Shown here one piece after another: positions 7,028-29,802 of a stretch of DNA of 64,000 nucleotides. The position numbers and the translations under genes were made by a program. Position 1 is the stretch's first letter. Each line of letters begins with the position of its first letter. Source of the DNA: a virus; the IMG/VR virus record IMGVR_UViG_3300047315_000823, one strand, 5' to 3'. Below the pieces are notes generated by a model. The model had not been told where the DNA came from. It ran no database searches and saw only the letters and a program-made list of their open reading frames with translations.

Positions 7028-7464
7028 GCGACCACCTCGTTGCGGCTGCCGGTGAGCCGGTAGCGGCGGTCTGCTGCGGCGTTGGCGGCTCTGCAGACTT
7101 CGCAGCGCTCGCCGGCCTTGAGGTGGCGGCGGTACATGCGGGGTTCGCCGCAGACCGGTTCGGGCCGGGGTGTGCGGGTGCGGCTTCGGGGGTGACCTCC
7201 GCCGGGCTTCCAGCCGTTGTCTTTCCAGCCCTGGACGGTGGAGTGGTCGGATCCGACCTGCTGGCTGATGGCCTTGAGCGCGACGCCGCGACTGTCGAGG
7301 ATGCGCGCGGCGTAGATCTTTTCGGCGAGGGTGAGCTGCACGGGTTCGCCGTTGAGCGCACACTCGATGGCGATCAAGTCGAGGTCGTTGTGCGGGTCGT
7401 AGGTGCTGGTGGTGGAGACGTAGAGGCGCTCGCGGGTGCCGGCGCCGACGCGATGCCCGTTCAT
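7024..7464 (-). CDS. HTH / Zn-binding phage protein
   Basis: HTH-like LKAISQQVGSDHSTVQGW; CG...YRRHLKAGERCEVCRAANA. Confidence 0.7.
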   Translation of the reverse strand: MNGHRVGAGTRERLYVSTTSTYDPHNDLDLIAIECALNGEPVQLTLAEKIYAARILDSRGVALKAISQQVGSDHSTVQGWKDNGWKPGGGHPRSRTRTPRPEPVCGEPRMYRRHLKAGERCEVCRAANAAADRRYRLTGSRNEVVA

Positions 7465-15351: not shown

Positions 15352-16253
15352 GCCGCACCGCCGTTGTGGCGCTGCTGCGGCAGGCGGACAACCTGCGCAC
15401 CCGGAATCGCTGGCCGGTTCCGCGACGGCAGACCATCGCGTTCCAGCGCGGCCACGAGATCCAGTTCGGCCTCGCCAGGGATTACGAGGGTCTGCTGGCG
15501 GCGCACCCGGTTCCGGTCCAACTTGGGCGCCAGGTAGAAGTAGCGCTTGCCCTTCGCCGTCGGATGCGCGTGCTCCGGGCCGTCCTTCCACTCGTTCTTC
15601 CGCTCGTCCCAGCGGGTGTTCCGCTGGTCGATCAGGTAGTCCTTGCGGTAGAGGTGCTCGAAGAAGTCCCGCTCCCCCACCTCGGGGAAGTGCGTCTTGT
15701 GGAACACGGTCGGCGTGATGCCCGGGTTGGCTTCGTAGTCGTCGGCGACGCGGGCCTTCGGGGAGAGGCGGGAGTTCGTTTCGACGAGCTCCGTGTTCTC
15801 CGCCCGGATGTCTTCCAACTCGCGGGCCTGGCGGGCGGCGAGCTCCAGTGCGCCGGCGAATGTCGTCGGGACCATGAACTGGTGGGCCTGCGCGACCTCG
15901 GCCTCGCGGGTCTTCGCCGCGAAGTAGGTCTGCGCGGCAGCCACTTCCGGCTTCCGCGGGTCACCGTTCATGGCAGTCAGGTACGCGGCGTATCGGGTCA
16001 GCCGGTAGTCGTTGCCGGGTCGGCCACCCTGGCGGGAGGGGTTCTTAGGGATGACCCTGAAAACCTCCAACGGGTCCAGGCCCGTGTTGCGAGCGGCAGC
16101 CATGGCGCGCTCGATTACCGGCTCGAACTGCTGCCAGCGGGGGTAAGCCATCTGCGGCATCAGCTCGCGGGCGAACCAGTGCTCGCCTTCATCGTCCAGG
16201 TGCCTGGTGCTGTCGAACGGGGATGATCCGTCCGATGGGATGATGGAGGACAA
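15348..16253 (-). CDS. Phage antirepressor (Bro-N/DinD-like plus KilAC-like)
   Basis: WFARELM...Y..W..F..VIERA, DYRLTRYAAYLTAMNGDPRKPEVAAAQTYFA, PTTFAGALELAA, PKARVAD. Confidence 0.8.
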   Translation of the reverse strand: MSSIIPSDGSSPFDSTRHLDDEGEHWFARELMPQMAYPRWQQFEPVIERAMAAARNTGLDPLEVFRVIPKNPSRQGGRPGNDYRLTRYAAYLTAMNGDPRKPEVAAAQTYFAAKTREAEVAQAHQFMVPTTFAGALELAARQARELEDIRAENTELVETNSRLSPKARVADDYEANPGITPTVFHKTHFPEVGERDFFEHLYRKDYLIDQRNTRWDERKNEWKDGPEHAHPTAKGKRYFYLAPKLDRNRVRRQQTLVIPGEAELDLVAALERDGLPSRNRPAIPGAQVVRLPQQRHNGGAA

Positions 16254-16341
16254 CGGGGTCCCCTTCCTTCTCAGTGGTGGAGGTGGATCTCGATCGAGGT
16301 CGTCCCGGGCTTGGCGGTTACGGGGCGGCCTCTTTGCCGCT

Positions 16342-16623
16342 CTAAGCGGCGACGCGGGCCGGCCTGCGCGGTTCGGCGGGGCGGGACTCCAGGAGGCGTG
16401 TGGGGTCCGGGGTCATGGCGGCCTGGTACTGGCCTTCGAGGTAGGCGTCGAGGTCCGCAATGCGGTAGGCGACGTAGCGGCCGATGTTGTAGCCCGTGGG
16501 GCCCTTGCCCTTGACGCGCCACTTGCGGAGCGTTGCGAGGGTGACTCCGATGTAGGGGGCGGCGTCTTCGATCCAGAGGCACCCTTCGGGCGCCCGCTGC
16601 TTCGGTCCCTTCCTGTTGTGCAC
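16342..16623 (-). CDS. HTH_17 excisionase/RDF-like protein
   Basis: EDAAPYIGVTLATLRKWRVKGKGP...VAYRIADLDAYL; AAGGAG RBS before the GTG. Confidence 0.8.
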   Translation of the reverse strand: MHNRKGPKQRAPEGCLWIEDAAPYIGVTLATLRKWRVKGKGPTGYNIGRYVAYRIADLDAYLEGQYQAAMTPDPTRLLESRPAEPRRPARVAA

Positions 16624-16627
16624 TGGT

Positions 16628-16912
16628 CTACTCCTTAGAGGTGGGGGGTATACGGGGAGACGGATCGTCCAGTTCTGGAGACGCCGGAGGCGCGAAGAGG
16701 ACCAGGAGGGCGACGCCGAGGGACTCCACGAGGGAGTGGGCGTCTTCCATATCTGCGGTTCTCTGCCGGCCGGTGGCGAGCTTTTCGATGAGGCCGGATC
16801 CGCAGCCACTGGCTTCCGCCAGGCTGTCGTATCCGTAGGGGGCGCCCCGGCCTGGGTTTTTCATGACCCACTTGAAGATGTGGGCGCTCTTCAGCGTGTA
16901 TCTGCGGCTCAA
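16628..16912 (-). CDS. Cro-like XRE HTH protein
   Basis: First gene divergent from the repressor; DSLAEASGCGSGLIEKLATG. Confidence 0.75.
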   Translation of the reverse strand: MSRRYTLKSAHIFKWVMKNPGRGAPYGYDSLAEASGCGSGLIEKLATGRQRTADMEDAHSLVESLGVALLVLFAPPASPELDDPSPRIPPTSKE

Positions 16913-17054
16913 TGGTTCCCCCGAGGTGCGGAACTGCCTTGATGAGACGAGTTAAGCACGGCGGAGACGAATCGTCTACCAATCTGGACGACGTACCACC
17001 CGGTATCGGCAAACTTTCTGGCTGGTTACCATGCTTCTGTAGACGATCCGTCTC
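16657..17054. promoter_or_regulatory. Three operator sites, consensus GAGACGRATCGTCYA
   Basis: 16657-16672 GAGACGGATCGTCCAG; 16964-16979 GAGACGAATCGTCTAC; 17039-17054 reverse complement GAGACGGATCGTCTAC. Confidence 0.75.
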
Positions 17055-17153
17055 CAGAAGGGGATGGTTGTACGGCGTGACCTGCTATTTTTCCGGCGCC
17101 AACCCCCACGGATAGAGACAGTCGGTGCGAACGTGACGCGAGAGGACGACGAC

Positions 17154-17591
17154 ATGACAGTCCCGGCCAAAGCTCCGGAGTCCGGCGCGACGCAGCCGGC
17201 GACAGACGTCGGGGCGCTCTCCCAACTCATCCAGGAAGCGCTCGACAAGGGCGACTCCTACCAGCGCCTCGCCGACCGGGCCATCGACCCCCAAACCGGC
17301 GAGACCGTCTCCAAGCCCTACCTCCAGCGCATCGTGAAGACGCCGCCCGCGAACCCGCCGACGCCGCCCATGATGGGCGCGATCGCGGCGGCCCTCGGCA
17401 AGCCCGTGTGGCGCATCAAGGAAGCCGTCGCCAAGCAGTGGCTGCTGTACGAGGCGACAGAACTCGCCGGCTACGACGCCGAGGTGCGCATCATCGTCGG
17501 ACACCTCGCCGGCAAGTCGAAGGCGGAGCTGATGAAGTGGCGCTACATGATCGAGGCGGACGAGCGGGCGCGGCGCGAGGCCGGCGAGTAG
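17154..17591 (+). CDS. Immunity repressor (XRE-type HTH)
   Basis: SYQRLADRA...VSKPYLQRIVK; divergent from the Cro-like gene and upstream of the integrase. Confidence 0.8.
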   Translation: MTVPAKAPESGATQPATDVGALSQLIQEALDKGDSYQRLADRAIDPQTGETVSKPYLQRIVKTPPANPPTPPMMGAIAAALGKPVWRIKEAVAKQWLLYEATELAGYDAEVRIIVGHLAGKSKAELMKWRYMIEADERARREAGE

Positions 17592-17746
17592 CGCATCGCC
17601 CGCCGGACTTCGTCCCGTGATCACGAATGTCCGTAAGTAGACTTTGCTTCAACTGATTGTCGAACACTCCCTGTAGACGTACCCTTCACCAACCGTGCAC
17701 TTCTGGCCGTTCTGGCGCGTTGTGCATCGTGCGCTAGGAGGGCCGG

Positions 17747-18190
17747 ATGCTGGACGTCACCTATGAGGCCGTCGAAGACCTCCCGCCAGGCAGACTGGCG
17801 ACGATCGAGGAAGACCGCGGGAAGATCCGCGTCAAGGTCGATGCGACGGAGCCGCTCGCGTCCGTCGTCCGCCAACTCAACGTCGAGATCGACCGGTTGC
17901 TGACCAGCTCGGATTGGTTCCAACTGTGGGGCGACGAGATCGTCAGCCGCAGTACACCCGCCTCTCCCCTGCGGATCGAATACGTACTTCACCGACTGGT
18001 GCCCGACACGGCCATCCTCACCGAGAGCAAGGGCTGCGTTCGCGTCCACATCGACCCCGCCCTCAGCACCGAAGAGTTCGCCGCGGTGATGAATCCGGCC
18101 ACGAAGGACATCCTCGCCGGGGGACAGTGGTTCCAGCTGTACGGCGGCGAGATCATCGACAACTCGCCGGAGCCCATCACTCGGGTCTGA
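17747..18190 (+). CDS. Hypothetical protein with two internal ~70-aa repeats
   Basis: Halves end in WFQLWGDEIV and WFQLYGGEII; GGAGG RBS. Confidence 0.75.
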   Translation: MLDVTYEAVEDLPPGRLATIEEDRGKIRVKVDATEPLASVVRQLNVEIDRLLTSSDWFQLWGDEIVSRSTPASPLRIEYVLHRLVPDTAILTESKGCVRVHIDPALSTEEFAAVMNPATKDILAGGQWFQLYGGEIIDNSPEPITRV

Positions 18191-18205
18191 CGAACGGGGG
18201 CGGCG

Positions 18206-19594
18206 GTGGCGGGGTACATCGAAGACCGCTGGATGACGAGGAAAGCGGATCCAGCGACCGGCAAGAAGCGTCGGACCGCACGCTGGGGGCAGGGGAAGCG
18301 TTGGCGGGTCGCCGGCGTCCCTGGCGTGCGGGACCGGTCCTTCACCAACCTCAAGGGCCCTGACGGGGCTGAGAAGTGGCTAGCCGACTCGCAGACGGAT
18401 ACGAGCCGCGGCCACTTCTACGATCCACGCGACGGCAACATCACGCTGCGGGAGTACGTCGAGCAGACGTGGTGGCCGACGCTGCGGAAGGCGCCCGGCA
18501 CCAAGCAGTCGATGAAGCCTCGGGTCTTCAATCACATCCTTCCCCACGTGGGGCATCTGTCGCTGAACCGGATCGGGCACGACGAGATCCGGGTCTGGCT
18601 CACCCGGGTCGAGCAGGACATCGACGTGAACACGGTGCGCACGACGTGGCGCCATTTCTCGACGATCATGCAGGCGGCGCACAAGGCCAAGAGGATTGCC
18701 GAGAACCCGTTCAGGGATGAGGACTTGTCGGCGCCGGCGGCGCCTCCGTCCAAGGCGAAGGCGTGGCCCAGGGAGACAGCTGCTGCGGTGCGGGCCGAGT
18801 TGGGTCCCCGGTACGGGATCCTTGTGGACCTCGCTACCGGGGCCGGGCTGCGGCAGGGGGAGTGCTTCGGCTTCTCGCCGGACGACATCGACGGCGACGA
18901 GATCCATGTGACCCGTCAGATCGTGCGGATCAATAGCCGTCTGGCGTTCGCGCCTCCGAAGCGCGGCAAGCTCCGCGACGCACCCTGCCCTCCGGAACTG
19001 GCCCGCGCCGTCAAGGAGTACGCGAATGTCTTCCCGACGGTCGAGGTGACGCTGCCCTGGGTGGACCCGGACCGGCCGAACCTGGAGTGGGACAAGCGTC
19101 CCCTGCGGACTGTACGTCTCCTTGTGACCACACCCAGGACCGGCGGAGTCAGCGGCGGCGCACTGAACCGGGCGACGTGGGACGACAAGGCGTGGAAGCC
19201 GGCGCTCGCCCGTGCGGGCGTCATCCCGGAGCCCGAGGTCGAGTACGTGCAGGCGAACGGGAAGAAGCCGTGGCGCCGGGTGGCGTGGCGGATGCCGCGG
19301 GAGGACGGCTTCCACGTCACGCGGCATACGTTCGCTAGCATCGTGCTGTCGGAGGGTGAGACAATCACTCAGCTGGCTGCGTGGCTCGGTCACTCGGATC
19401 CGGCGTTCACGCTGAGGACTTACGTGCACTTCATGCCGAAGTCCGGGAAGCGGGCGCTGGCTGCGCTCGGCTCGTGGATGTCCCCAGGTGGGGGCGGGAC
19501 CCGAGCCGCTGAGGCCGATCAGGCTGTTGAGATCTCTCCCGGTTCTGATTCTCCCCAGATTCTCCCCAGCGAAGATCTGGATCAAGGAATCTAG
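18206..19594 (+). CDS. int: Tyrosine integrase
   Basis: GLRQGE (R), PPKRG (K), FHVTRHTFAS (HxxR), LGHSDPAFTLRTYVH (H, Y). Confidence 0.95.
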   Translation: MAGYIEDRWMTRKADPATGKKRRTARWGQGKRWRVAGVPGVRDRSFTNLKGPDGAEKWLADSQTDTSRGHFYDPRDGNITLREYVEQTWWPTLRKAPGTKQSMKPRVFNHILPHVGHLSLNRIGHDEIRVWLTRVEQDIDVNTVRTTWRHFSTIMQAAHKAKRIAENPFRDEDLSAPAAPPSKAKAWPRETAAAVRAELGPRYGILVDLATGAGLRQGECFGFSPDDIDGDEIHVTRQIVRINSRLAFAPPKRGKLRDAPCPPELARAVKEYANVFPTVEVTLPWVDPDRPNLEWDKRPLRTVRLLVTTPRTGGVSGGALNRATWDDKAWKPALARAGVIPEPEVEYVQANGKKPWRRVAWRMPREDGFHVTRHTFASIVLSEGETITQLAAWLGHSDPAFTLRTYVHFMPKSGKRALAALGSWMSPGGGGTRAAEADQAVEISPGSDSPQILPSEDLDQGI

Positions 19595-19596
19595 CC

Positions 19597-19620
19597 TTAC
19601 CTCCCAGGTCAGGGAGGTAA
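19597..19620. terminator. Hairpin between the int stop and the rnpB fragment
   Basis: TTACCTCCC-AGGTCA-GGGAGGTAA, perfect 9-bp stem. Confidence 0.75.
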
Positions 19621-19622
19621 GT

Positions 19623-19669
19623 GGCAGACGAGTCGGGCTGTACGCCGGGTTCTGTCGCCCGGTCGCCTT
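19623..19669 (-). ncRNA. rnpB: 3'-terminal fragment of RNase P RNA (att core), not a full gene
   Basis: Minus strand GACAGAACCCGGCGTACAGCCCGACTCGTCTGCC is the conserved P4/P1 3' end of actinobacterial RNase P RNA; the 5' GAGGAA(A/C)GTCC motif was not found nearby. Confidence 0.85.
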
Positions 19670-19857
19670 CCACCTGCGGTGCTTCAGCGGGATCTTCGGT
19701 GCACTGCCCTGACCTGTGGAGACGGGTGGTGACGAGTTGAGACGGGTGGTGACGGAGTCGGTTCGACCAGGTCTCCCCGGCCGCTCCCCACGGCATGTCC
19801 TCCCCAGATTCTCCCCGCGCGTCCGCCTTGCCGAGGACGTGCGACCTGCGAGAAGGC

Positions 19858-20097
19858 CTAGTGGTGCGTCTCGCAGGCGCCTCCCGGTACGTACTCGCTC
19901 CCCGAGCGGGCCGCGGACTCCCGCCGCGTGTCTTCGATAGCGATCACGCAGTCCTCGCAGCCGCGGACTTCCTTCTCGCCGTCCGCTCGGGGGTGCACGA
20001 TGCCGACCACGGCCGTGGGGACTTCGCCTCGCTCGGGATGCCGGAAGCAGATTCCGGAGGCCCACTCGTAGAGGTCGAGGATCATCTGTCGTTCCAT
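19858..20097 (-). CDS. Small Zn-binding hypothetical protein
   Basis: CFRH...CEDC; start MERQ after GGGAG. Confidence 0.55.
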   Translation of the reverse strand: MERQMILDLYEWASGICFRHPERGEVPTAVVGIVHPRADGEKEVRGCEDCVIAIEDTRRESAARSGSEYVPGGACETHH

Positions 20098-20370
20098 GTG
20101 CCGGCTCCCGTTGGCGGTGCGGATGTTGAGGTGGGGGGTGGTGACGCTGGTGCCCGACCTGTTCAACCGGATGCAGGTGGGAGGGGTTGTTCACCCCTTC
20201 GAGTGAACAAGTTTTCGATTTCCGGACACTATCGCTAGCCCTGCGACGTAGACCATGGGGCGCAGGGCGGACGTCGGTCCTGACGGGGACCGGGGTAGGC
20301 TATTTCATGATCGTAAAGCGCCGCAAAACTGCTGCTGACTTGCGACCATGATCAGTAAAGCGTTGGCGGG

Positions 20371-20601
20371 GTGCCCGACGAGCAACCTCGATGGATCATC
20401 GACGCCCGCAAGGCCGTCGGCGACCGCATCCGGGTCCGACGGCTCTACCAGAACATGACCCAGGAAAGCCTCGCCCACACCACCGGCCTGGACCGCAGCA
20501 CGATCCAGCGCATGGAGAGCGGGGCGGAGATGAAACTCAGCCACCTGCTGCTGGTCGCTCATGAGTTGCGGGTACACGTGACCGACCTCCTCCACGGCTG
20601 A
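20371..20601 (+). CDS. XRE-family HTH regulator
   Basis: MTQESLAHTTGLDRSTIQRMESG. Confidence 0.85.
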   Translation: MPDEQPRWIIDARKAVGDRIRVRRLYQNMTQESLAHTTGLDRSTIQRMESGAEMKLSHLLLVAHELRVHVTDLLHG

Positions 20602-24344: not shown

Positions 24345-24896
24345 TCAGCCGCTCCCCAGCTTGGCGGCCAACTGGTAGGCCGGGTGATTGTCGAGGCGGT
24401 TCGGGTTGATGGCGCGCGGCCTAGCCCATCCGTGGAACGGGTCCCAGTACCGCAGGTGGATTCCGAGGATCTGTGCTGGCGGCCTTTCGCGGTACTTCCG
24501 GAAGAGGCCGTTGTCGTGCGGCTCGCGCCTGTTGCAGCTTCGGCAGAGCATGCCGCGTATCAGCCCGGTGTCATGGTCGTGGTCGTCCACCAGGCGCACG
24601 TCGCAGTAGCCGCAGACAGCGCACCGGCCAGCGTGCCATGCCCTGAAGACCGAGCGATCGTCGTCGCCCTCGGAGATCACCATCTCCCAGGACCAGCAGA
24701 CCGGATCACGGGCAGCGAGCCGTTCGACGTGGTGGCGCTCCGACTCGGCGAAGCCGACGTCCCGAACTTCGCGCAGATTCACGGGCAGGTGCCGACCACA
24801 GAGTTGTGGGTCGCCCTCCAAGCCGTGCGGCCAGCGACTGGCCTGCGCCTTGCAGGGGCGCCCAGTCGTGGTCGTCGCTGTGCAGACGGGGTTCAC
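24345..24896 (-). CDS. Endonuclease VII domain protein
   Basis: CAVCG...DHDHDTGLIRGMLCRSCN; GTGA overlap with the recombinase stop. Confidence 0.85.
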   Translation of the reverse strand: MNPVCTATTTTGRPCKAQASRWPHGLEGDPQLCGRHLPVNLREVRDVGFAESERHHVERLAARDPVCWSWEMVISEGDDDRSVFRAWHAGRCAVCGYCDVRLVDDHDHDTGLIRGMLCRSCNRREPHDNGLFRKYRERPPAQILGIHLRYWDPFHGWARPRAINPNRLDNHPAYQLAAKLGSG

Positions 24897-25921
24897 AGTC
24901 CGATGTCCTCCGATGCGGCGTCGGTCCACTTGTCGGCTTCGCGAATGTAGCCCCAGAAGGCTGGGCTATTCTCTGCGTGACCGGACTGAGCGCGGATCTT
25001 CTCCTCGCGCTTGCCTGCCTTGCGGCTCGTAGTGATGAACCCGGCTCGCATGCTGTGACCAGTCAATCGGACGGCTACGCCTGCGCGTTCGGCGTTGCGG
25101 GTGATGATCTCGCGGACGGCTTCCGGGGAGAGCGCGTGCTCACCGAGATGGCCCCAGACGTCCACGGGGAGGAAGGCCGGCCCCGCGGTGATGCCTGCGG
25201 TGGCGCGCCAGTTGAGCCAGGCGCGGACGGGGCAGGTGTCGACGTTCTTGCCGTAGCTGACGACGACGTCTCGGGGCGGGCGTCCTTTCACGGCGGGGAC
25301 GTGGACTTCGAGTCCTTGGCTGACGTGGACGATGGCTTCGGCTCGCAGCTCGGCGACTTCGGCCGAGCGTCCGGCGATGCCGAAGGCCATGAGCCAGAGG
25401 GCGCGGTCGCGGAGTCCGGTGAGCCCGTCGGCGACGGCGGCGTTCATCTGGCGCAGTTGCTCGGGGGTGACCGCTGCGGCTTTGCCTCGTCCGCGCGCCA
25501 TGCGTTCGGGGTCGTTCTTCATTGGCTTGAGGGCTTGTCGCGCGGCGACGGTGGCGGCCTTGGGGACTTCGACGCCGAGGCCGCGCGCGGTGACGGTGAC
25601 CCCGGTGATCCTGCGGTCGATTGACGTGGGCGCGGCGAGCTTGATGGTGTCGAGCCATACGACGAACCCGACAAGCGTGCCCTTGGTGACGTCGGTCAAC
25701 GCGAGCGGGTGGCCGGTCTGTTCGGCGAGCCAATCGTGGAACTCGGTCCAGAGGTTCCAGTCGTTGGCATAGCCGCGCTTCGTGTTGTTGGGGCGGATGG
25801 CGTCGAGGTGCTGTTCGGCTGCCTGCTCCATCGCGGCGAGGACCGCGAGCGTCGCAGCGTCACGGACGGCGGGGGTGGCGTCCGGCTGCTGCGGGACGAG
25901 GGCGGTGGAGTCGTCCGTCAC
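24893..25921 (-). CDS. Second tyrosine recombinase (Cre/XerC-like)
   Basis: NTKRGYANDW SAM-like domain, RDRAL...GRSAEV, GHSMRAG, SGH...FWGYI. Confidence 0.9.
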   Translation of the reverse strand: MTDDSTALVPQQPDATPAVRDAATLAVLAAMEQAAEQHLDAIRPNNTKRGYANDWNLWTEFHDWLAEQTGHPLALTDVTKGTLVGFVVWLDTIKLAAPTSIDRRITGVTVTARGLGVEVPKAATVAARQALKPMKNDPERMARGRGKAAAVTPEQLRQMNAAVADGLTGLRDRALWLMAFGIAGRSAEVAELRAEAIVHVSQGLEVHVPAVKGRPPRDVVVSYGKNVDTCPVRAWLNWRATAGITAGPAFLPVDVWGHLGEHALSPEAVREIITRNAERAGVAVRLTGHSMRAGFITTSRKAGKREEKIRAQSGHAENSPAFWGYIREADKWTDAASEDIGL

Positions 25922-26352
25922 TGCCCGCTCCCTACAGGCCACTCGTTGCCGCCGGGATCGATCCACTCCAGAGGCAGACCGGCCTCCTTGCGCATCTCGT
26001 TACGTCGCACCAACGCATCCATTTCTTCGCCGCGCTGGCGAGCAGACTCTCGCATGCGCTCGCGCACCACGCCGTTGGCGACGTCCAGCGCGGCGTCAGC
26101 AATGCAGTCAACGCACGCCCAGTCGGTGACGTGCTCCAGGTGGTAGGCGGCTGGCAGCTCCTGGAAGGAGCGGAACAGCAGGCGGGAGGCGCTGACGACA
26201 CAGGTGCCGAGCGCGGGCCCCCGACCGCAGAGGCAGTCTCCGCCCAGCTCGGCGACAGTCTGCGGAATGTTGACGGAGGTGACCTGACCTATCCCGGCAT
26301 CGCGGCGAGCGCGACGGCGAGCCAACAGCTCGTCTGAGGGGTTTTGAGGCAT
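25918..26352 (-). CDS. Cys/His-rich hypothetical protein
   Basis: CLC...C...H..H..CVDC; TACAAT 5 nt before the ATG; GTGA overlap with the recombinase. Confidence 0.65.
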   Translation of the reverse strand: MPQNPSDELLARRRARRDAGIGQVTSVNIPQTVAELGGDCLCGRGPALGTCVVSASRLLFRSFQELPAAYHLEHVTDWACVDCIADAALDVANGVVRERMRESARQRGEEMDALVRRNEMRKEAGLPLEWIDPGGNEWPVGSGQ

Positions 26353-27872: not shown

Positions 27873-29537
27873 TCAGGTGGCCTTCGAGACCCAAGGCCAG
27901 GTCGCGTCGCGCCCGGCTTCAAGGAGCGGCACCAGGCGGAAGGCGGTATCCGTCAGACCGCCGAGCGTGTGTCGGCCTGCGGCCCCGGAGGGCATGGCAC
28001 CAGGCTTGTAGCCGGCCAGGTTCCACATGTAGACCGGCACGTGCTTCGGTACGAGGTTGTCGATCTGCGTCTCCCGCATCCCGCCGAAGCGTTCCATGTT
28101 GGACGGGAGCCAGCCGGGCCGGGTCTGTTCGTCGGTGACGACGATGACGCGGTCGTGCCGGTCGTAGTGCTTCTTGACGGCGGTCGGGATGTCGGTGCCG
28201 TCGTTCTGGCCGTACTGCTCGATGAGTTTGAGGACGCTGCCACCCTTGGGGACGTCTAGCCGCTTGGAGCTGCCGCCGAACTCAACGAGCGTCGGCGCCT
28301 CGGCGCGCATCGCGAGTGCGGAGCCGAAGACCGCGGCCTGTTCGGCAAGCGTGATGTCCGAGCTGTTCGGCGTGGAGAAGCGTAGGCCGGGGAACATCGA
28401 CGGGGAACGGTCGACGAGGATCAGCGTCCGACCGGACAGGCGGGGCACGTTGGCGAGGGAGTGGCCGAGGGCCTGCTCGAGCGCGTGAGCCCACCGCAGG
28501 GACGGGGCGTGCTTATAGGCGGCCCACCAGCGGAACGGGAACATGCGGGAGGCGTTCACTGCGGCCGGGTCGGTGAAGCGGGCGCAGATCTGGGCGGCCA
28601 CCGTATTGGATACGCCGACCTCGTCGAAGTTCCGGAGGTTCCTGGCGAGCGCCATCAGGCCCATGGACGGGATGATCGCCTCCCAGGCCGCCTTGTCCAT
28701 CGGTCCCTGGAGCCAGCCGGCCAGCGCCTCCCAGGTAATGCCTGCAGCCGCGAGCCGCTTGGCACTGTCGGGGGCCGTTACGACCGCGCGCCGCTCAGCG
28801 ACCGGTATGGCCATCAGCTCACGGTGCGCGGTCAGCGTCCGGTTCGACGTCGGCGGGATGGCGCTGTCGGGGTTGTGGCGTCGGTCGAGCGCGTACTGGA
28901 ACAGCTCGCCCTGCCATGGCTTGCCCGGGTCGGGTGCGGCGTGGACGAGGTTGAGGATGTCGCCGAAGCGGTAGCCCTTGGACGCGGTGTCGTACTTGAG
29001 CAGGCTTCGCTCGGTGTAGAGGTGCTGGACTGCGTCGGCGATGCCGCGCTTCACCGGCTTCGGCAGGCGGCGGCCGTAGCGGGAGGTCCAGTAGCCGAGC
29101 AACTCGCCAGGCTCGTCGGGACGCTGGAGGACGGCGTCGATGACGCGGCGGTTGAAGCCCGCGTCGAACGTTCCGTCGGTGGGGGCGGCGGCGTTGCGTG
29201 TCGCATCGAGTCGCGCCCATACGAACTCTGCGGCGCCGACCAGGGCCGCGATTCGCATGTTGCCTTCGCCTCGCAGCCAGCCGAGCAGGCCGACCGTCCA
29301 CTCCGGGTCCTCGACGGCCAGCTTGCGGACGAGCTGCGTGTACCGGTCGTCGCGGTCCCCGCCCTTCTCGTAGAAGGCGTCCTGGCCAACGAAGTTGGAC
29401 ACTGCCAGCAGGAAGAGTTCGGAGCGTGCGTCCCGGAGATGCCCAGTGGCGCCTTCGTGGGTGACGGTCCGCTCCCCGGTAGTGGTCACTGGCGAATGGA
29501 CGGCGGGACGGGTGCCGCGCTGGTTGAACCTGGACAT
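27873..29537 (-). CDS. rsr: Ro60/TROVE-domain RNA-binding protein with C-terminal vWA domain
   Basis: ELFLLAVSNF, LPKPVKRGIADA, KYD, ALARNLRN, SRMFPFR, ILVDRSPSM (MIDAS), IVVTDEQ, WNLAGY; true start MSRFN at 29537. Confidence 0.92.
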   Translation of the reverse strand: MSRFNQRGTRPAVHSPVTTTGERTVTHEGATGHLRDARSELFLLAVSNFVGQDAFYEKGGDRDDRYTQLVRKLAVEDPEWTVGLLGWLRGEGNMRIAALVGAAEFVWARLDATRNAAAPTDGTFDAGFNRRVIDAVLQRPDEPGELLGYWTSRYGRRLPKPVKRGIADAVQHLYTERSLLKYDTASKGYRFGDILNLVHAAPDPGKPWQGELFQYALDRRHNPDSAIPPTSNRTLTAHRELMAIPVAERRAVVTAPDSAKRLAAAGITWEALAGWLQGPMDKAAWEAIIPSMGLMALARNLRNFDEVGVSNTVAAQICARFTDPAAVNASRMFPFRWWAAYKHAPSLRWAHALEQALGHSLANVPRLSGRTLILVDRSPSMFPGLRFSTPNSSDITLAEQAAVFGSALAMRAEAPTLVEFGGSSKRLDVPKGGSVLKLIEQYGQNDGTDIPTAVKKHYDRHDRVIVVTDEQTRPGWLPSNMERFGGMRETQIDNLVPKHVPVYMWNLAGYKPGAMPSGAAGRHTLGGLTDTAFRLVPLLEAGRDATWPWVSKAT

Positions 29538-29538
29538 G

Positions 29539-29561
29539 AAAAAGCCCCTCGCGTGGAGGGG
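29539..29561 (-). terminator. Intrinsic terminator immediately before the rsr ATG, sequestering its SD
   Basis: CCCCTC-CACGC-GAGGGG-C-TTTTT-C-ATG. Confidence 0.7.
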
Positions 29562-29573
29562 AGGTGCAGCAGT

Positions 29574-29717
29574 GGGGTGCCCGAGATCAAGGTCGGTGCG
29601 GGTGACAAGGCGCTCTGCCGATTGAGCTACAGAAGCCGCTAAGCCTCCGGCGGGACTCGAACCCGCAACCACCCCATTAGCAGTGGAAGTAACCCGTACC
29701 TGCGCACCGGGCACCCC
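29574..29717 (-). ncRNA. yrlA: YrlA-type Y RNA (tRNA-mimic domain on a Ro-binding stem)
   Basis: Terminal stem GGGGTGCCCG/CGGGCACCCC, GGTGCGCAG/CTTGATCTC Ro-site-like helix, T arm GCGGG-TTCGAGT-CCCGC, closed 7-bp acceptor stem, D arm GCTC-AATCGGCA-GAGC. Confidence 0.85.
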
Positions 29718-29719
29718 CG

Positions 29720-29802
29720 ATGCTGTGCCTCCCGAGATCAAGACGGCTGCGGGTCTGTTTCGCCAAAGGAAGGAACCGCAGCCTGCGCACCGGGAGGTGC
29801 AT
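29720..29802 (-). ncRNA. Second, shorter Y RNA (YrlB-like)
   Basis: CCTCCCG/CGGGAGG stem, the same CCGGTGCGCAGG...CTTGATCTCGGG motif, internal GGCTGCGG/CCGCAGCC stem. Confidence 0.75.

Follow-up and report, generated by a model that had tools for sequence, protein, structure and literature searches.

The 64,000-nucleotide (nt) stretch analysed here, from IMG/VR virus record IMGVR_UViG_3300047315_000823 and called the window below, carries a tyrosine integrase gene (int, 18206-19594, plus strand) followed on the minus strand by a copy of the 3' end of rnpB, the gene for the RNase P RNA of Streptomyces. This report concerns these two features and the phage attachment site (attP) that they mark. 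The 462-residue integrase matches Pfam Phage_integrase (PF00589, 33 bits against a curated cut-off of 27.1), the catalytic domain of tyrosine recombinases, and falls slightly under the cut-off of 27 for Phage_int_M (PF22022, 26.6 bits). Its catalytic residues R216, K252, H370, R373, H396 and Y406 do not vary among 14 homologues (alignment A1), and a PDB profile search matches it to Tn1549 Int and the HP1 integrase. Residues 1-95, where an arm-binding domain was sought, gave no Pfam match; the N-terminus is strongly conserved (GYIEDRW, PGVRDRSF), and arm-type repeats are present at attP. The integrase has 602 homologues, mostly in Streptomyces. No near match to the int-attP region exists among 50,697 phage records, where the best protein matches are 21-28% identical.

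The rnpB fragment

The block of identity with rnpB spans 46 bp (19623-19668, minus strand) and begins 28 nt beyond the int stop codon. All 46 positions are identical to the rnpB 3' end in at least 25 Streptomyces species (E ~4e-17 each), which is far beyond chance, and a 120-nt probe of the site matches 300 of 301 Streptomyces species genomes. A permissive Rfam scan matches 19625-19665 (minus strand) to the 3'-terminal ~30 positions of the RNaseP_bact_a model (17.6 bits, E=0.0017). The full RNase P RNA gene (RF00010) is absent from the 64-kb window, the match comprising 41 nt and 17.6 bits against a gathering score of 100; the window thus carries a fragment of rnpB, not the gene. The fragment is present once, no second copy of the rnpB end and no internal duplication being found within the 64 kb.

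The preliminary description of this DNA, made from the letters alone, had quoted the minus strand after int exactly and had recognized in it the conserved 3' end of an actinobacterial RNase P RNA, which comparison with Streptomyces rnpB now confirms and delimits. When the full Streptomyces rnpB is aligned to Rfam, P18, J18/2 and the P2 3' strand are followed by a hairpin with a GCGA loop, then by ACAGAA, the P4 3' strand (CCCGGCG) and the P1 3' strand. The hairpin is correctly named P19, since it follows P18, J18/2 and the P2 3' strand and directly precedes ACAGAA. Mapped on this structure, the identity block contains the P19 3' strand, ACAGAA, the P4 and P1 3' strands and the 3' tail of the RNA. 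The description had also seen the 3' half of P19 behind a GNRA loop. Its reading of the P19 strand was right; the GGAA in front of that strand is not a copy of the host GCGA loop and belongs to a phage motif, CAGGTGGA, that stands at the same distance in relatives.

Homologous integrases at rnpB and in lysogens

Loci were fetched for relatives of the integrase, 80 genomic and 76 viral (156 in all); Kitasatospora, Embleya and Actinacidiphila also hold such relatives. A full rnpB lies directly after int and convergent to it at 10 of the 156 loci, and a 26-49-nt rnpB 3' fragment stands alone in that place at 57 more. In Streptomyces genomes, integrases 71-76% identical to that of the window sit ~30-55 bp from an intact full-length rnpB. 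That the rnpB-like stretch in the window was picked up or arose by chance and plays no part in integration is scarcely credible in view of the 67 related loci that hold it at the same place beside int, and of lysogens that are bounded by copies of the rnpB end.

In each of five such lysogens the rnpB end occurs exactly twice, as direct copies separated by 57.3-64.3 kb. The copy on the int side is a full-length gene (278-298 bits; gathering score 100), and the far copy is an orphan rnpB fragment with host DNA beyond it. In the single-copy genome G053 the full gene is followed by its native terminator (GGGCCTCCGACCTG..); in lysogen G004 and at several clade-B loci (see below) this terminator stands after the displaced fragment. 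In a tblastn comparison of the window proteins with prophages G001, G003 and G004, which are three of these five and were fetched whole, the genes that lie rightward of attP have their counterparts at the fragment end and those leftward of it at the rnpB end. Recombination at the core would produce just such a permutation. It is also shown by a homologue of the Cro/CI-type helix-turn-helix (HTH) regulator encoded just past attP in the window, which lies at the rnpB-fragment end of the same three prophages.

The preliminary description had proposed that the integrase targets rnpB. Use of the rnpB 3' end as the bacterial attachment site (attB), with restoration of the gene, is strongly supported: homologous integrases adjoin full-length rnpB in the lysogens, with the displaced direct copy at the other end. 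We propose, at a probability of roughly 90%, that 19547-19816 serves a temperate Streptomyces siphovirus as its attP and that the tyrosine integrase of this phage recombines the site with the 3' end of host rnpB.

Two clades of rnpB-using integrases and their prevalence

A tree of 130 integrases contains two well-supported clades that use rnpB. Clade A (50 rows including the window) has int convergent to rnpB, and clade B (41 rows) has int co-oriented with the rnpB fragment. At the clade-B loci (L025-L066, ~7336-7371 in each), the integrases are ~50% identical and the fragment lies on the int strand; the elements take the opposite orientation at rnpB, with int at the end remote from the gene, and their arm repeat reads AAGTCCC(T/A)GAG instead of GGGGAGAAT. 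Nested within clade A is a subclade (L016-L020, L113 and neighbours) that has apparently switched to another target: no rnpB fragment follows int, and the shared motif downstream is GTGTAGACCGTCGG, with CAGGTCA or a similar sequence in front. ARAGORN found no tRNA gene near int in the non-rnpB relatives.

Other members of the family stand out individually. The closest genomic integrase (80% identity) is that of locus L010 in Streptomyces wuyuanensis, where the far arm is hidden by a run of N, masked in the genome collection, starting ~10 nt upstream of ACAGAA. Loci L011 and L097 hold the same element, on a contig binned in a metagenome-assembled genome of Kofleriaceae (Myxococcota) and in a 90-kb IMG/VR genome rated complete; their core has ACAAAA and GTCCG, which is not typical of Streptomyces and may reflect mis-binning or a different host range.

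The prevalence of such elements was gauged in 120 other sampled Streptomyces species genomes by counting a 23-nt core of the rnpB end, one mismatch being allowed. At least two copies are present in 28 of the 120 (23%), and the reversed-pattern control gave 0. Copies on the same contig are spaced 1.4 to 132 kb apart. In five genomes (G104, G113, G069, G089 and G119) the rnpB end is present three or four times each, and some extra copies lie megabases from the presumed rnpB (2.27 Mb versus 6.92-7.01 Mb in G113); the extra copies may represent multiple or relocated elements. At L031 and L038 a clade-B rnpB fragment is followed by a clade-A-type arm with the CTGACCTG hairpin, which suggests tandem arrays of both element types at one rnpB.

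The existence of such arrays, together with the three or four core copies of G069, G104 and G113, gives some footing to the idea that the window comes from a bacterial contig and that its site is the internal junction of a tandem pair of elements at rnpB, not a free attP. We consider this very unlikely, for the same GGGGAGAAT repeat stands on both arms, the genes of both sides belong to one phage genome and follow the same permuted order as in single prophages, and a second core is missing from the 64 kb. Moreover, positions 16212-20245, 4 kb of DNA comprising int and attP, are 97.7% identical to a stretch of another IMG/VR genome (record G006, locus L081) that encodes an identical integrase protein. 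The shared part is limited to that stretch; the G006 genome is 87.5 kb long, has direct terminal repeats, is rated complete and holds one copy of the core. The window represents a temperate, siphovirus-like phage in its excised form, with an attP arrangement.

Location of the crossover

The attL and attR sites of the lysogens share identity blocks that range from 35 to ~59 bp (~44 bp in G003, ~45 bp in G001 and ~59 bp in G002). The preliminary description had placed the crossover in the P19 loop, with the integrase using the symmetry of the stem as integrases directed at the anticodon loop of tRNA genes do. Several observations are in keeping with that placement: the identity block of the window spans the entire P19 3' strand, the identity block of G002 takes in the P19 loop, and the attPs L082-L085 and L151 copy the GCGA loop plus 2-3 nt of the P19 5' strand. 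A crossover in the loop is nonetheless quite unlikely. The attP of the window lacks the P19 5' strand and has GGAA where the host has GCGA. In lysogen G004 the identity of attL and attR starts exactly at CAGAAC, and in lysogen G005 a C/T mismatch lies directly 5' of ACAGAA, which puts the crossover 3' of P19. Homology to P19 is absent from the free attPs L089, L094 and L098, and clade-B attPs match rnpB from CCCGG onward only.

Because of these junctions and homology limits, we place the probable crossover at 19624-19650 (minus strand; ACCCGGCGTACAGCCCGACTCGTCTG), the smallest homology common to all family attPs and a zone that fits the attL/attR mismatches of the lysogens. A second mismatch in G005, a G/A difference in CCCG-R-CTCG, would cap the crossover on its 3' side if the base is phage-derived. 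Strand exchange would most likely occur within the last ~26 nt of the RNA gene, in the P4 and P1 3' strands.

Organization of attP

Twelve diverged attPs were compared by counting motif positions from the first C of CCCGG in the rnpB sense. On the int side, two tandem 11-bp arm-type repeats of family D1 (19547-19568, minus strand; GGGGAGAATCT twice in the rnpB sense) lie within the 3' end of int itself and encode the conserved integrase tail DSPQILPS; they are fixed at +82 and +93 in all 12 attPs. Both are altered alike in G001 (GGGGGCAAT twice), a joint change that fits co-evolution with a binding protein. A 17-nt repeat of the same family, CTCCCCAGATTCTCCCC, occurs with 100% identity at 19551-19567 and at 19800-19816, thereby flanking the core on both sides. 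The latter copy is the distal arm-type GGGGAGAAT repeat (19800-19816, minus strand), which lies at -167 on the far side of the core and is kept at -157 to -181 in 9 of the 12 relatives.

The second motif class comprises CAGGTCAG-type sites, which occur at -57 to -69 and often also at -27, with the inverse motif CTGACCTG exactly at +37 in the 12 attPs. The proximal site of the window, CAGGTGGA (19669-19676, minus strand), is at -27 and includes the GGAA discussed above; a site at this position is also found in L086, L087, L089 and L094. The -27 and +37 sites form a dyad centred on GTACA. The distal site, CAGGTCAGGG (19707-19716, minus strand), lies at -67; the site is kept at -57 to -69 in relatives and is also present in clade B. 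It is inverted relative to the copy in the hairpin loop, the two forming the inverted pair I3 (CAGGTCAGGG / CCCTGACCTG, 19605-19614 / 19707-19716). The preliminary description had pointed out arm-type repeats on either side as well as the inverted pair; these were recovered here, and their positions are conserved in relatives. The site also has two 20-bp direct repeats of family D2 with 85% identity (19710-19749, plus strand; TGAC..GAGACGGGTGG); relatives have different repeats at this place (TCGGAAC three times).

A perfect hairpin (19596-19621, minus strand) lies 2 nt past the identity block. The description had given its stem as 9 bp; the stem has 10 (19596-19605 / 19612-19621), and its 6-nt loop contains CTGACCTG in the rnpB sense. 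The RNA fold has a predicted energy of -23.2 kcal/mol (z = -3.5). The hairpin was also said to replace the host terminator, which is plausible for this phage but is no rule of the family, since several relatives lack a stable hairpin. Stems in relatives are variable or absent, though the loop motif stays exactly at +37; with folding energies ranging from -34 to -2 kcal/mol, the hairpin was rejected as a family-wide feature.

Proposed model of integration

We propose that integration joins the first ~350 nt of host rnpB to the phage-borne gene end and the phage hairpin, so that the essential ribozyme gene would stay whole. The host rnpB end and its terminator would be moved to the far prophage junction, at least ~57 kb away. 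Strand exchange most likely takes place around GTACA, and integrase and accessory proteins would probably bind the flanking repeats to form the intasome. These repeats are GGGGAGAAT on both arms and the CAGGTCAG-type sites, at -67, at -27 and in inverse orientation at +37. The model draws on direct observations, namely the identity with rnpB, the link of the whole family to this gene, the junctions seen in lysogens, the permuted gene order and an attP layout kept among relatives; the exact crossover point, the pairing of proteins with repeats and the role of the hairpin as terminator are put forward as probable parts of it.

Some points weigh against assigning 19547-19816 to an rnpB-specific attP. 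For this phage itself the case rests on sequence comparison, and the probable crossover zone is deduced from relatives whose integrases are 71-76% identical (clade B ~50%). An empty site in a strain-level relative was not found: host flanks past the displaced fragment matched nothing beside rnpB in 9 fetched loci or in 120 other genomes, and representatives of different species share no conserved sequence downstream of rnpB. The native terminator, placed after the full gene in G053 and after the fragment in G004, lends indirect support here. In addition, the core count covers 64 kb, and the source record may be longer and could hold a second copy.

Other genes of the phage

The minus strand at 27.8-54 kb encodes a large terminase, a portal protein, a major head protein and a 1763-residue tape measure protein, and the window further encodes RecT, a RusA-like protein, an antirepressor and two HTH proteins. 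One of these (16342-16809, minus strand; Pfam HTH_17, E=1.8e-6) is a candidate excisionase, with homologues near int in prophages G001 and G003. The other is the Cro/CI-type regulator mentioned above (20371-20601, plus strand; Pfam HTH_3), the second gene past attP, with 19858-20166 intervening.

Two open reading frames (ORFs) at 17064-17591 and 17747-18190 (plus strand), for which Pfam and PHROG gave no match, immediately precede int and share its strand; their counterparts adjoin int in prophages G001, G003 and G004 (34-61% identity). A second protein of the Phage_integrase family (357 residues; 24893-25966, minus strand) is encoded ~5 kb past attP. It is 82.5% identical to the product of a correspondingly placed gene in G004 and 28% identical to one in G003, and may be a second recombinase or Xer-like. 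The phage also carries a tRNA-Ser gene (anticodon GCT; 29641-29715, minus strand) that overlaps the predicted start of ORF 27873-29741, whose 622-residue product matches phrog_850 'RNA-binding protein'; the true start of the ORF is probably further downstream.

Comparison with known systems and implications

Among actinobacterial elements, VWB, mu1/6, pSAM2 and L5 are examples that target tRNA or transfer-messenger RNA (tmRNA) genes. More generally, phages, islands and integrative plasmids use tyrosine integrases to enter the 3' parts of such genes (Williams 2002 and the Islander/TIGER resources, as cited in PMC12884075). The element described here resembles them in that int adjoins attP, attP holds the 3' end of a structured and highly conserved RNA gene, the gene is restored with the displaced 3' fragment as a direct repeat, and arm-type repeats flank the core. 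It differs from them in its target, the RNase P ribozyme gene; int has no tRNA gene nearby in any relative checked, and its product shares only 21-28% identity with the integrases of VWB, mu1/6 and OnionKnight. Unlike tRNA sites, the probable crossover zone lies in the P4 and P1 3' strands, which make no local stem-loop, so that the stem-symmetry logic of tRNA-type targets is not obviously applicable.

The nearest parallel is Enterococcus phage phiEf11, which integrates into ffs (4.5S RNA) with a 27-nt identity block near the int end (PMC12540744, 2025). Both are temperate phages with a non-tRNA housekeeping RNA gene as attB and an identity block near the int end; gene, host phylum and integrase are different. 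The same paper, which presents ffs as a novel site of this kind, names tRNA/tmRNA and csRNA as known non-coding RNA targets and leaves rnpB unmentioned. In the full-text literature that we searched, rnpB is nowhere described as an attachment site, its mentions being as a phylogeny marker or in gene lists. The preliminary description had called its use rarely described.

A lambda-type attP consists of a core and arm-type sites. The site in the window is like it in having repeated motifs on both arms around the core, including tandem repeats with 11-bp phasing, and unlike it in having two motif classes, a CAGGTCAG dyad at -27/+37 around the core and one arm set within the int coding region.

With this phage family the RNase P ribozyme gene joins the short list of RNA genes at which phages dock (tRNA, tmRNA and, recently, ffs), and the site is a common one, with about a quarter of the 120 sampled Streptomyces species carrying a duplicated rnpB end. 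Automated annotation of rnpB should accordingly expect orphan 3' fragments. Since the core is near invariant, an int-attP cassette from this phage could serve as a broad-host-range integration vector for Streptomyces and would stand beside phiC31, phiBT1, VWB and pSAM2 in the engineering of these bacteria. The family also offers a test case of how a tyrosine integrase reads a target without tRNA-type stem-loop symmetry. A broader view, to which we give an even chance, is that rnpB is a major and so far undescribed integration hotspot of Streptomycetaceae, used by two well-separated integrase clades in opposite orientations with strand exchange in the P4/P1 elements of the ribozyme catalytic core; because the prophage would supply the gene end and the terminator, lysogeny could then alter the 3' processing or the level of RNase P RNA.
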